Shown: positions 60,599 to 64,000 of the stretch, piece by piece
Numbering within the stretch: the stretch's first letter is position 1
Layout of the letters: each line of letters begins with the position of its first letter
Assembly: GCA_030528345.1 (NCBI GenBank)
Contig: JAUMZB010000002.1
Span: 39,456 to 103,455, forward strand
Reading direction: 5' to 3'
Length of the DNA: 64,000 nucleotides
DNA from: Eikenella sp.
Lineage (GTDB): Bacteria > Pseudomonadota > Gammaproteobacteria > Burkholderiales > Neisseriaceae
Position numbers and translations under genes: made by a program
The notes under the pieces: model-generated
What the model was told of the DNA's origin: nothing
Seen by the model: only the letters and a program-made list of their open reading frames with translations
The model's database searches: none

Positions 60599-61678
60599 AT
60601 GAATCCGGAAACTTTGCGCGCCGCCTTAGAAGCGGTGCCGCTGCCCGACAGCCGCTTGAGCATCGGCAGCGAAAAGGCGCTGAAACAACTGGCTGCCGAC
60701 CAGGGCGTGCTGCAAGTGGGTCTGCAATTCGGCCTGCCGGTGGCGCACCTTGCGCCGGTTTTGGAGCGGGCAGTGGCCGAGGCCGCAGCGGCGGCCGGTT
60801 GGAACGGCCCGCTAAACATCCAAGTCGGCAGCCGGATCGAAGCCCACCAGGTACAGCCCGGCATGCGCACCCTGGCCGGCGTGAAAAATATAGTGGCCGT
60901 GGCTTCGGGCAAAGGCGGCGTGGGCAAATCCACCACTTCGGCCAATCTGGCGGCGGCCATGCAGCGCATGGGCGCGCGCGTGGGCGTGCTGGATGCCGAC
61001 CTCTACGGCCCCAGCCAGCCCACCATGCTCGGCGTGGCCGGGCAAACCCCGGCCCAGCAAAACGGCCGTTTCCTGCCCGTACGCTCGCCGGAAGGCATCC
61101 AAGTGATGTCGATCGGCTTTCTGGTGGACACCGACCAGGCCGTGGTTTGGCGCGGGCCGATGGTGAGTCAGGCGCTGCAACAACTGCTGTTTCAAAGCGA
61201 GTGGGACGAAGTGGACTATCTGTTTGTCGACCTGCCGCCCGGCACCGGCGACATCCAACTCACCCTGTCGCAAAAAATCCCGGTTACCGGCGCGGTGGTG
61301 GTGACCACCCCGCAAGACATCGCCCTGATTGACGCCCGCAAGGCGGTGGATATGTTCCGCAAGGTCAATATTCCGATTTTCGGCGTGCTGGAAAATATGT
61401 CGGTGCACATCTGCAGCCGCTGCGGCCATCAGGAAGCCTTGTTCGGACAGGACGGCGGCAAGGCGCTGGCCGAACGGCTGAACGTGCCGCTGCTCGGCCA
61501 GCTGCCGCTGAGCCTGCCGGTGCGCGAAGCCATGGACCAAGGCCGAGCCGCCGCGTTGCAGGCCGCCCACCCCGCCATTGCCGACGTTTACACCGCCGCG
61601 GCCTGGCAGGTGGCGCAGGCGGTGGCCGCCAAAGGACGCGATTTCAGCAGCCGCTTCCCGAAAATCGTGGTGGAATAA
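60599..61678 (+). CDS. apbC: Fe-S cluster carrier ATPase ApbC/Mrp
   Basis: 359 aa. Deviant Walker A (VASGKGGVGKSTTSANLA), the CxxC motif (ICSRCGHQ), and an N-terminal DUF59-like domain. Confidence 0.9.
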   Translation: MNPETLRAALEAVPLPDSRLSIGSEKALKQLAADQGVLQVGLQFGLPVAHLAPVLERAVAEAAAAAGWNGPLNIQVGSRIEAHQVQPGMRTLAGVKNIVAVASGKGGVGKSTTSANLAAAMQRMGARVGVLDADLYGPSQPTMLGVAGQTPAQQNGRFLPVRSPEGIQVMSIGFLVDTDQAVVWRGPMVSQALQQLLFQSEWDEVDYLFVDLPPGTGDIQLTLSQKIPVTGAVVVTTPQDIALIDARKAVDMFRKVNIPIFGVLENMSVHICSRCGHQEALFGQDGGKALAERLNVPLLGQLPLSLPVREAMDQGRAAALQAAHPAIADVYTAAAWQVAQAVAAKGRDFSSRFPKIVVE

Positions 61679-61750: not shown

Positions 61751-62167
61751 ATGTCTGCCTACGATCCGAACAATATCTTCGCCAAAATCCTGCGCGGCGA
61801 AATCCCCAACCACACCGTTTACGAAGACGAACACACGCTGGCCTTTATGGACGTGATGCCGCAGGCGCGCGGCCATGTGCTGGTGATTCCGAAAACCGCC
61901 GCCGTCGAGCTTGCCGACCTGCCGCTGGACGCTGCCCGCGCCGTGATGGCCACCGCCCAGAAAGTGATGGCGGCTCAGCGTAAAGTGCTGCAGCGGCAGG
62001 GCATCGTGCAGATGCAGCTCAACCACGCCCAAGCCGGCCAAAGCGTGTTCCACTACCACCTGCACCTGATTCCCGCCAATGTACACGAACTGGGCCGCCA
62101 CGAAGGCGGCATGGCCGATCACGCCGAATTGGCCGCGCTGGCGGCCGAGCTGCGCGCCGCGCTGTAA
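61751..62167 (+). CDS. HIT-family (histidine triad) nucleotide hydrolase
   Basis: 138 aa. HxHxHxx motif (VFHYHLHLIPA). Confidence 0.8.
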   Translation: MSAYDPNNIFAKILRGEIPNHTVYEDEHTLAFMDVMPQARGHVLVIPKTAAVELADLPLDAARAVMATAQKVMAAQRKVLQRQGIVQMQLNHAQAGQSVFHYHLHLIPANVHELGRHEGGMADHAELAALAAELRAAL

Positions 62168-62344
62168 CGCGCCACCGCCAGACGAAAAGATTAAATTCAA
62201 AATTTAATCAAATGATTAAACCCGAACCCTCCCGTCTGCCGTCAGAAAAACGGCAGGGGCGCGTCCAAGCTGGCGAACCGGTATGGCACAGCGCGCCGGC
62301 TTGGTTTTCTCACTCCCGCCATGATCTACGAAAGGAATTTCACC

Positions 62345-62620
62345 ATGAAAAAAAACTCCGTTTTGGCCCTGGCCACCGCCCTGTCTGCCCTGACCGTGGG
62401 CGCCTACTCCGTGAGCCATGCACACGGCCACCATCACCACCACCATCCGGCAACTGAAAAAGCACAAGAAGCCGCTTGCGGCGCGGCCAAATCCGGCGAG
62501 GCCGCCTGCGGCGCCCACAAAGCCGGGGAAGCGGCCTGCGGCGCTCAAAACAAAGCCGGGGACGCAGCCTGCGGCGCACACGGCAAATCCGGCGAAGCCG
62601 CCTGCGGCGCTGCCCACTAA
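62345..62620 (+). CDS. secreted Cys/His-rich repeat precursor peptide (HvfA/bufferin-like, DUF2282-type) for the adjacent MNIO enzyme
   Basis: Sec signal peptide (MKKNSVLALATALSALTVGAYSVSHA), an HGHHHHHH tract, then five tandem repeats (AQEAACGAAKS / GEAACGAHKA / GEAACGAQNKA / GDAACGAHGKS / GEAACGAAH), each with one Cys. Strong RBS (aaaggaa). An inverted DUS-pair hairpin separates it from the next gene. Confidence 0.6.
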   Translation: MKKNSVLALATALSALTVGAYSVSHAHGHHHHHHPATEKAQEAACGAAKSGEAACGAHKAGEAACGAQNKAGDAACGAHGKSGEAACGAAH

Positions 62621-62628
62621 ACGGTTTT

Positions 62629-62659
62629 CAGGCTACCTGAAAGCGTTTCAGGTAGCCTG
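62629..62659. terminator. inverted DUS pair between the precursor gene and the DUF692 gene (candidate attenuator)
   Basis: caggctacctgaaagcgtttcaggtagcctg. Confidence 0.5.
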
Positions 62660-62793
62660 ATGCCCCGCCCGAGTTTTTGGCAAAACCCTTCCTCCGGCCC
62701 ACGCCTCAAACAGGGATGTTTTTGTCAAAACCTCGTTCCGCCCGGCTCCGGCCGCCCTGTTTCCTGCCAACGCCCTGCCTTCGGATACCCTTG

Positions 62794-63666
62794 ATGATGC
62801 CTGCCCCGACTCCCCGTCCCCTGCCCGCCGCCCGCGCCGGCCTGGGCTACCGCCGCCCCTTTGCGGCAGAACTGCTCAGCCTCGAGCCGCAGCAATGTCC
62901 CATTGCTTTTCTCGAAATCGCGCCCGAAAACTGGGCCCGCATGGGCGGCGCCGCTCTGCGCCAATTCGATCAGGCCGCCGAACGCTTCCCCGTGGCCTGC
63001 CACGGCCTCTCTCTCTCCTTGGGCGGCCGCGACCCGCTCGACACCGCCCTCTTGGCCGACATCAAACGGCTGATGCACCGCTACGGCATGAGCTTCTTCT
63101 CCGAGCACCTGAGCTACTGCGGTCACGCAGGCCAGTTATACGACCTGCTGCCGCTGCCGTTTACCGGCGAAATGGTGCGGCATACCGCCGCGCGCATCCG
63201 CCAGGTGCAGGACTTCCTCGGCATGCAGATTGCGGTGGAAAACACCTCTTACTATGTGCACAGCGATTTGGCCGAAATGGACGAAGTGGCCTTTCTGAAT
63301 GCGGTGGCGGCGGAAGCCGACTGCGCCATCCATCTGGACATCAACAACATTTTCGTCAACCAAACCAACCACGGCCTGTTGGACGCCCGCGACTTTCTGG
63401 ATCGGGTGGACGGCAGACGGGTGCGCTATCTGCACATCGCCGGCCATGAAGCGGAAGCGGAGGATTTGCTGATCGACACCCACGGCGAAACCGTGCGTGA
63501 CAGCGTATGGGATTTGCTCGACTACGCCTACCGCGTGCTGCCCCAAGTGCCGCCCACCCTGCTTGAGCGCGACTTCAACTTCCCCCCGTTTGCCGAGCTG
63601 CTGGCCGAAGTCGCGCACATCGACGCTTTGCAGCAACCCTACCGGAGCCAATATGCCGCAGCCTGA
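62794..63666 (+). CDS. DUF692-family multinuclear non-heme iron oxidative enzyme (MNIO; MbnB/HvfB/BufB-like)
   Basis: About 290 aa from [11 protein letters not shown]...[11 protein letters not shown]-barrel DUF692 motifs ([31 protein letters not shown]). The ORF track extends 5' to 62677. Confidence 0.8.
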
Positions 63667-64000
63667 TGCGGCCGCCTACCAGGCGGCATTGGCCGAATTT
63701 GTCCGCAACCCCGAACAGGCTGCGCCGCCCGGCATCTGCCCCGAGCGCGCCGCCGTCTATACCCGCCTGACCCGCAACAATGTGCGCAGCTTCGTGCGCC
63801 GCTGCTTCACGGCCGCCCGACCCTTGGCCGCCGCCGAAGTGTGGGCCGATTTGGAAAACCGCTTTTTGGCCGAAGCCGCCCCCGCCAGCCCTTATTTCAG
63901 CGACATCCCCGCCCTGTTTGTCGAATACGCCCGCACCGACGGCCGGCTGCCCGCACCGCTGCTGGCGCTGATGGATTTCGAAACCGTACAGCTGGCCGCC
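63653..64000 (+). CDS. DUF2063-family partner protein (MbnC/HvfC/BufC-like), truncated at the window end
   Basis: The ATG overlaps the DUF692 stop by 14 bp. N-terminus [22 protein letters not shown]...[16 protein letters not shown] matches the DUF2063 N-terminal signature. It runs off the window and so is not in the ORF track. Confidence 0.7.

Follow-up and report, generated by a model that had tools for sequence, protein, structure and literature searches.

Three co-oriented genes at the end of a 64,000-nucleotide stretch of DNA from Eikenella sp. (GenBank assembly GCA_030528345.1, contig JAUMZB010000002.1, positions 39,456 to 103,455; hereafter, the window) encode a putative secreted peptide, an enzyme of the DUF692 family and a DUF2063 protein. 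The question that this locus raises is whether the peptide, with its run of histidines and its unusual cysteine repeats, represents a distinct subclass of metal-binding peptides that are made by ribosomes and modified after translation (RiPPs), as suggested in a sequence-only reading of the window, or belongs to a system that has been characterized already. The answer that emerges from the comparative analysis is that the system is an ordinary member of a very large, recently characterized family, the captophorins, with a lineage-specific variant of the precursor. With a probability of roughly 0.8, we interpret the locus as a stress-inducible captophorin operon, i.e., an MNIO (oxidative enzyme dependent on multinuclear non-heme iron)-PME1 RiPP system of the HvfA/NgoA type and the Eikenella/Neisseria shayeganii orthologue of ngoXABC-rpoE-mseR.

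The identity of the two downstream genes is clear. The product of the middle gene matches the DUF692 family PF05114 with an E-value of 3e-97 (325.4 bits against a cut-off of 25) and the NCBIfam HvfB model NF003818 with 371.5 bits against a cut-off of 360, over profile positions 2-264 of 264; it scores 261 bits with the BufB model, under the cut-off of 310, and 41 bits with MbnB. An identical protein, MDO4693236.1, is on record for a metagenome-assembled genome (MAG) of Eikenella sp., and the closest solved structure is PDB 3BWW (E 1e-103). The codon differences (48 synonymous vs 10 non-synonymous) indicate purifying selection. The motifs HGLS, EHLS, VEN, LDxNN, HxAGH, DTHG and ERDF are conserved, and an alignment of 79 sequences, FonB among them, shows no variation at H70, H105, E149, D182, N184/N185, H214, H218, D228, H230, E258 and D260. 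The iron ligands are presumably to be assigned among these residues as in the MbnB structures. Equally invariant in the 79 sequences are R20, R21, D260 and F261, the equivalents of R15/R16 and D249/F250 of FonB. The third gene, which shares 14 nt with the MNIO gene, is truncated where the window ends; its 115 available residues match PF09836 (E 4e-15, 56.2 bits against a cut-off of 27.2) and the HvfC model NF050145 (E 2e-30, positions 2-110 of 237), the latter with 106 bits against a cut-off of 142, a score lowered by the truncation. A 238-aa protein of N. shayeganii has 97% identity to this fragment over its first 115 residues; it contains the HvfC_N and HvfC_C domains and matches PDB 3DEE (NgoC) with an E-value of 1e-37. 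Both Pfam matches anticipated in the sequence-only reading were thus obtained, and its description of a truncated precursor-MNIO-DUF2063 architecture related to HvfABC and to bufferins is borne out.

Captophorins are recognized by a Cys-rich precursor adjoining an MNIO-PME1 pair, and this arrangement, with the precursor gene directly upstream of the MNIO gene, was found here and in 78 related loci. The members characterized since 2024 include oxazolin (HvfA), bufferins, bulbicupramide, fontiphorin and gonophorin (PMC11252979, PMC11626156, PMC12452194, PMC13097082), and more than 20,000 captophorin clusters are present in RefSeq (PMC13097082). Because the class is established on this scale, with several characterized products, the locus opens no new question.

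The captophorin modification is a 5-thiooxazole, identified by alkylation-assisted heteronuclear multiple bond correlation (HMBC) in oxazolin, gonophorin and fontiphorin (PMC13097082). HvfA was first reported as an oxazolone-thioamide (PMC11252979), the structure adopted in the sequence-only reading, and has since been revised to 5-thiooxazole (PMC13097082). Conversion of the window precursor's cysteines to pairs of oxazolone and thioamide, as known from methanobactin and first reported for HvfA, appears highly improbable: the original report and the shift of -4 Da per Cys common to both modifications are compatible with such pairs, but the HMBC data give 5-thiooxazole in all three peptides, a 2026 preprint on the H. 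influenzae factor bears the title 'Thiooxazole formation...' (10.64898/2026.07.17.739211), and the scores of the window MNIO are 371 (HvfB) and 261 (BufB) vs 41 (MbnB) bits. The repeat chemistry had also been called undescribed, which by now is true only in a narrow sense: in NgoABC all 7 cysteines of NgoA, including those of three (Q/E)GSCGA single-Cys motifs, become 5-thiooxazoles, and the product binds 1-2 Cu, and FonBC processes an EAACG substrate, with Ala before the Cys and a small residue preferred after it (PMC13097082). Given the NgoA and FonBC precedents and the retention of the substrate-contact residues, the most likely product, by analogy, is a Sec-exported, copper-binding peptide carrying five 5-thiooxazoles.

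By the same analogy, the following sequence of events can be proposed. An extracytoplasmic function (ECF) sigma factor, with its gene just past the window and its activity restrained by a zinc-binding ZAS anti-sigma factor, would transcribe the operon from a promoter-like site ahead of the precursor gene. In the cytoplasm, the HvfC-like partner would bind the 91-aa precursor and present it to the multi-iron oxidase, which would turn the Cys of each of the five (E/D)AACGA repeats into a 5-thiooxazole, with a loss of 4 Da per Cys. The modified peptide would then be exported by Sec, lose its signal peptide and sequester copper in the periplasm, chiefly Cu(I), with the N and S atoms of the thiooxazoles as donors. 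The His-dense N-terminus created by the cleavage (HGH... or HAH...), which resembles an amino-terminal Cu(II)- and Ni(II)-binding (ATCUN) motif, may add a site for Cu(II), Ni or Zn. Finally, a hairpin between the precursor and MNIO genes probably stabilizes the precursor message or attenuates read-through, so that the precursor would be made in excess of the enzyme. The coordinates of all these elements are given in Table 1.

Table 1. Elements of the Eikenella captophorin locus; coordinates are positions in the window.
Feature	Coordinates	Strand	Remarks
Precursor gene, NgoA/HvfA-type captophorin precursor, Lys-free variant	62345..62620	+	91 aa plus stop
Predicted Sec signal peptide, precursor residues 1-26	62345..62422	+	n-region MKK, hydrophobic core, S-H-A at -3 to -1
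His-dense tract H-A-H-G-H-H-H-H-H-H, 8 His in 10 residues	62417..62446	+	His6 at 62429-62446
Five (E/D)AACGA repeats, period 10-11 aa	62468..62611	+	Cys 45, 55, 65, 76, 87
MNIO (DUF692) maturase, HvfB family	62794..63666	+	290 aa, complete; PF05114, NF003818
HvfC/DUF2063 partner (PME1), N-terminal 115 residues	63653..64000	+	cut by window end; PF09836, NF050145
Inverted AG-eikDUS pair between precursor and MNIO genes	62628..62660	+	15-bp stem, 3-nt loop; repeat search, folding
Candidate ECF sigma-E-type promoter, GTCAGAAAA-N12-CGTCCAAG	62241..62268	+	77 nt upstream of precursor ATG
AT-rich stretch, possible UP element	62186..62222	+	read from sequence

The precursor open reading frame (ORF), preceded by the ribosome-binding site AAAGGAA at 62331-62337, encodes MKKNSVLALATALSALTVGAYSVSHAHGHHHHHHPATEKAQEAACGAAKSGEAACGAHKAGEAACGAQNKAGDAACGAHGKSGEAACGAAH (91 aa), with a hexahistidine at residues 29-34 and five AACGA motifs containing one Cys apiece. 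At the nucleotide level, Tandem Repeats Finder (TRF) detects a 30-33-nt tandem array at 62468-62610. The sequence matches no Pfam family and, in particular, is not DUF2282, the family suggested previously. Comparison of 13 repeat cores, 5 from the window and 8 from N. shayeganii 871, yields 218 synonymous vs 12 non-synonymous pairwise nucleotide differences, with synonymous variation at every codon and a fixed peptide motif; such a ratio implies that the repeat motif is subject to purifying selection and that the precursor is a real gene. Two further ORFs over the same region, 133 aa in the antisense orientation (62216-62617, minus strand) and 81 aa in another frame of the plus strand (62212-62457), were rejected as shadow ORFs of the GC-rich repeats, although both could mislead gene callers.

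Among 79 precursors extracted from beside related MNIO genes, the residue that precedes Cys-Gly is Lys in 367 cases, Ser in 70, Ala in 15 and Thr in 2. Only three precursors lack K-C-G altogether, namely, those of the window and N. shayeganii and that of one Pseudomonadales MAG with EGSCG pairs. A His-dense tract is present in the window (8 His in 10 residues) and in N. shayeganii (7 in 10), and nothing comparable is seen in the other 77, so that the combination of the two features, which had been singled out as unusual, is indeed confined to these two lineages within the set. The precursor of N. shayeganii 871 has 121 aa, eight AACGA repeats and the tract HAHGHHGHHH, and the precursor on Logan contig L001 has an identical His6. 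The array is polymorphic in length, with 5 units in the window, 6 or more in L001 (949-1191) and 8 in N. shayeganii (L002 5460-5825). The Lys-free repeats throughout, the His-dense N-terminus and the loss of the adjacent DoxX gene (see below) are specific to the Eikenella/N. shayeganii lineage. Because the enzyme keeps the substrate-contact residues of the Lys-Cys group, interpreting these features as marks of a distinct metal-binding RiPP subclass would be an over-reading.

Each of the characterized systems shares part of its organization with the window locus. The gonophorin system has the same gene order (A-B-C-ECF sigma-ZAS anti-sigma, as traced for the window lineage via N. shayeganii), single-Cys E-x-x-C-G-A repeats in a precursor of the Sec type (for the window, as predicted by eye), a stem-loop that follows the gene for this peptide and a GTCAG...CGTC(T/C)AA motif heading the operon. 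The window operon differs in that it has no doxX at its head, contains Ala rather than Ser or Lys before the Cys, lacks the EGKCGEGKCG pairs that NgoA carries besides its single-Cys repeats (PMC13097082), and has a His-dense N-terminus and a stem-loop of AG-eikDUS elements without a U-tract. The Haemophilus influenzae oxazolin system, hvfXABC, has an MNIO with 61% identity to that of the window and in the same NCBIfam equivalog, a partner of the HvfC type and a Sec precursor with Cys-Gly repeats, followed by a terminator-like hairpin; in contrast, HvfA consists of three AEGKCGEGKCG units and an N-region with CxxxC, a DoxX gene is present, and HvfB contains an insertion of about 20 residues that is not found in the window MNIO. 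The fontiphorin system FonABC of Fontimonas thermophila shares the R-R and D-F contact residues, and FonBC accepts a substrate with Ala before the Cys and favours a small residue after it, which is the pattern of the window repeats. The bufferins (BufABC, Caulobacter), which have thiooxazole chemistry and sequester copper, likewise combine an MNIO with a DUF2063 partner and a precursor with a Sec signal peptide, the last being predicted for the window; however, the BufB score falls under the cut-off, and the window precursor is built of repeats rather than a folded DUF2282/Buf2 domain. In the published classification scheme of captophorins (PMC13097082), the window precursor would be placed under 'other repeat', a category with 508 of the roughly 24,000 clusters (Table S2), and not in the Lys-Cys group.

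The genomic context was traced in the nearest genome, N. shayeganii 871 (about 91% DNA identity; MNIO 97% identical), as a proxy for the genes that lie beyond the window end. In both N. shayeganii genomes, the operon consists of the genes for the precursor, the MNIO (290 aa), HvfC (238 aa), an ECF sigma factor (193 aa) and an anti-sigma factor of the zf-HC2 type (59 aa), and is followed by recBC on the opposite strand. The co-oriented genes for the ECF sigma (Sigma70_r2/r4_2) and for zf-HC2 with an HxxxCxxC motif are located directly after the partner gene in all six N. shayeganii loci (L082-L087), in place of the DoxX-like fourth gene that had been suggested downstream. A tblastn search with NgoX and a search with a 67-sequence DoxX profile found no DoxX in the 64-kb window or within 10 kb on either side of the MNIO gene in two N. 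shayeganii genomes (L082, L083); the gonococcal control (L048) was recovered with an E-value of 1e-74. In the other Neisseriaceae and Pasteurellaceae loci that were fetched, the gene immediately upstream of the precursor encodes DoxX, with few exceptions. Upstream of the window precursor, genes for an Mrp/ParA-type ATPase (60599-61678) and a HIT-family hydrolase (61751-62167), syntenic with N. shayeganii, occupy the doxX position of other Neisseriaceae.

Judging from these comparisons, the locus is orthologous to the gonococcal and meningococcal sigma-E operon ngoXABC-rpoE-mseR (NGO1948-1943; NMB2140-2145), with identities to the gonococcal proteins of 65% for B, 36% for C, 48% for the sigma factor and 45% for the anti-sigma factor, in which HxxxCxxC is kept. 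NMB1436-38, the Neisseria locus named previously as the homologue, is a different operon, lutACB, which encodes lactate dehydrogenase (bioRxiv 10.1101/2025.11.17.688940). The NMB2140-2145 operon is polycistronic, autoregulated by sigma-E and controlled by the ZAS anti-sigma factor MseR, and sigma-E of Neisseria controls only its own operon and msrAB (PMC2893595). This physical coupling to an ECF sigma and a ZAS anti-sigma factor also brings up the possibility that the main role of the system is defence against oxidants (HOCl/H2O2), with the thiooxazole thiolates serving in the periplasm as a redox buffer, whether sacrificial or signalling, under the control of a redox-sensing anti-sigma factor and in a regulon shared with methionine sulfoxide reductase. 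The restricted Neisseria regulon is compatible with such a role, and captophorin clusters have been linked to oxidative stress as well as to metals (PMC13097082). However, every characterized member binds copper, the two roles are compatible with each other, and nothing in this sequence separates them; we consider oxidant defence as the main role to be rather doubtful.

As for the expression of the captophorin operon, the pattern GTCAG-N15-18-CGTCYAA has a single match in the 64 kb, against 0.01 expected (in the form GTCAG-N16-CGTCCAA), although the pattern was relaxed at one position after inspection. The candidate promoter recurs ahead of the precursor gene in both N. shayeganii genomes. It resembles the Neisseria sigma-E consensus, GTMAGBWTT-N12-13-CGTCTAAH (PMC2893595), which is found upstream of doxX in three Neisseria loci (L016, L038, L048); neither the window nor N. 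shayeganii contains a match to the strict form. In meningococcal sigma-E promoters, an AT-rich UP-like element precedes the -35 by about 30 nt (PMC2893595), and the AT-rich stretch at 62186-62222, upstream of the candidate promoter, may be such an element. A scan for sigma-70 promoters detected none. Owing to the relaxed position and the departure from the strict consensus, the putative promoter at 62241-62268 is to be treated as a lead rather than a result.

The hairpin between the precursor and MNIO genes, inferred previously from the inverted pair of DNA uptake sequences (DUS), is confirmed: the arms at 62628-62642 and 62646-62660 are 15 nt long and 100% complementary, each contains the exact 12-mer AGGCTACCTGAA, and the folding energy is -28.7 kcal/mol (z = -7). 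The AG-eikDUS dialect is assigned to E. corrodens and N. shayeganii (Frye et al., PMC3630211). The same 12-mer has 31 exact copies in the window vs 0 expected, which assigns the window to the Eikenella/N. shayeganii group; at least seven close inverted pairs are present (e.g., 9093/9111, 13606/13623, 15396/15413, 43400/43428, 54465/54482, 60514/60531 and 62630/62647), and in all genomes that bear DUS, such inverted pairs often occur at gene ends (PMC3630211). Furthermore, the hairpin is followed by AUGCCCCGCC, without the U-tract of an intrinsic terminator; a terminator scan calls nothing on the plus strand and yields only chance-level matches inside the repeats on the minus strand. Thus, the hairpin might be a mere DUS pair in a permissive intergenic spot, with no role in the expression of the operon, an explanation that we regard as a real, if less favoured, possibility. 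What argues for selection on a structure at this position is that a stable stem-loop separates the precursor and MNIO genes in all 10 diverse related loci that were folded, including canonical terminators, none of them DUS-based, in N. gonorrhoeae, N. lactamica, H. influenzae and a Cardiobacteriaceae MAG. In view of these stem-loops, it is plausible that the hairpin tunes the ratio of precursor to enzyme, as proposed in the sequence-only reading. Between the hairpin and the MNIO start, there are also two near-palindromic and almost identical 15-mers, GTTTTTGGCAAAACC (62673-62687; unique in the window) and GTTTTTGTCAAAACC (62718-62732), with predicted base pairing between the two and conservation of both in N. 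shayeganii (L002); they could form a second RNA structure or a regulator-binding site. An Rfam scan of 62100-62850 returned no match.

The role of the His-dense tract bears on how far this member of the family departs from the others. The signal peptide was judged by eye and from its similarity to those of NgoA and HvfA: the n-, h- and c-regions are visible, and the leader aligns with the NgoA/HvfA signal peptides. Apart from the favoured cleavage site, VGA|Y and SVS|H are possible, and two of the three plausible sites leave a His at mature position 3 (HGH... or HAH...), possibly an ATCUN-like arrangement. Within the same captophorin system, the N-terminus could then make the peptide a functionally distinct two-module periplasmic metallophore, with an ATCUN/His-tract site for Cu(II) or Zn/Ni, akin to the His-rich N-terminus of ZinT, and thiooxazole repeats for Cu(I), which might compensate for the missing DoxX. 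Consistent with this proposal are the conservation of the tract (7-8 His in 10) in both lineages despite their differing sequences, its restriction to these among the precursors compared, the position of the His relative to the cleavage sites, a weak ZinT model match over the signal peptide and His region (E 0.023), and the lack of a detectable DoxX gene in the same lineage. However, the ZinT match is far under the cut-off and probably compositional, the cleavage site and the metal binding are themselves deduced from sequence, and the tract could instead serve recognition by the partner protein. Scattered His residues also occur beside the repeats in other family members (CGAHDHKK in Pasteurella), so that the tract may be a quantitative variant. 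On balance, a two-module metallophore of this kind seems unlikely, and we would hesitate at least as much to attribute any distinct function to the tract; the fuller scenario, in which the Eikenella/N. shayeganii lineage has remodelled a captophorin into a metallophore with an ATCUN/poly-His module for Cu(II) (or Zn/Ni) and, fused to it, a module of evenly spaced, Lys-free thiooxazoles for Cu(I), dispensing with DoxX, is more improbable still. If true, it would imply a route of metal handling unlike those of oxazolin and gonophorin.

Several observations weigh against the interpretation of the locus as a stress-inducible captophorin operon. The precursor falls below the cut-offs of both NCBIfam HvfA models, NF050188 and NF050137 (KCGExKCG_twice), with 19.4 vs 95 bits and 11.8 vs 19.5 bits, respectively. 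It contains no K-C-G motif, i.e., it lacks the Lys-Cys that is the hallmark of the best-studied group, and its cysteines are evenly spaced singletons rather than EGKCGEGKCG pairs, such that the geometry of the copper site may differ. DoxX, a near-constant neighbour in the other Neisseriaceae and Pasteurellaceae loci, was not found here. The candidate promoter departs from the strict published consensus, and the hairpin, devoid of a U-tract and belonging to a set of seven or more DUS pairs in the window, may owe its position to tolerance of DUS. The cleavage site, and with it the ATCUN idea, depends on a judgement by eye, and this particular peptide is known from its sequence alone.

Short low-complexity precursors of this type are poorly represented in protein collections. 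Neither the window precursor, in three start variants, nor the 121-aa N. shayeganii precursor was found by exact look-up in a collection of 15 billion proteins, and protein databases are accordingly a poor guide to the frequency of short low-complexity precursors; for N. shayeganii, the GenBank assemblies do include a call of the gene, although its protein is not in the collection. A word-indexed protein search with the precursor gave 26 candidates, none with E <= 1e-3. An exhaustive HMMER search of 1.84 billion representatives, in which short low-complexity ORFs are under-represented, retrieved six weak relatives, none of the AACGA-only type with a strong His tract. The best of the six (P0007; L127 4317-4556, Logan SRR33696108) is a stand-alone lipoprotein-like gene of 79 aa with a lipobox-like signal, a His-rich N-terminal part and EASCGA/EAACGA/EAGCGA repeats, without an MNIO within about 4 kb; its contig is of a simDUS-type Neisseriaceae, with znuA and luxS nearby. 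Short-read contigs break in or just after the repeat array: L001 ends inside it, and in four of the N. shayeganii loci (L084-L087), where the contig starts some 150 bp ahead of the MNIO gene, the annotation has no precursor gene. The in-frame DNA pattern for a pair of AACGA repeats is GCNGCNTGYGGNGCN(N15)GCNGCNTGYGGNGC; 39 loci from a metagenome scan (L088-L126), in which the pair is out of frame, are chance matches in GC-rich DNA and have no bearing on rarity.

A related lineage is also of note. In L130 (831-5216; ENA ERZ22665968), an MNIO that is 76% identical to that of the window is encoded in a DoxX-less A-B-C-ECF-ZAS operon, the precursor of which has a lipobox and EGxC(G/A)A motifs, including the Cys-Ala forms EGSCAA and EGKCAA. 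Since this lineage lacks DoxX and possesses yet another precursor, remodelling of the precursor is common in this branch. A GTCAG...CGTCT promoter-like motif lies upstream of the L130 precursor, and the operon is followed by genes for thioredoxin and DsbD.

For the study of Neisseria, the analysis corrects the annotation trail of the Eikenella locus, the homologue of which is the sigma-E operon and not NMB1436-38. For the captophorin family at large, the value of the locus is comparative: it is a natural experiment in which the Lys before the Cys is replaced throughout, the paired-Cys units are lost and DoxX is missing, whereas the substrate contacts of the enzyme are kept. As such, it could help to define the substrate needs of MNIOs, the dispensability of DoxX and the effect of histidines on metal selectivity.

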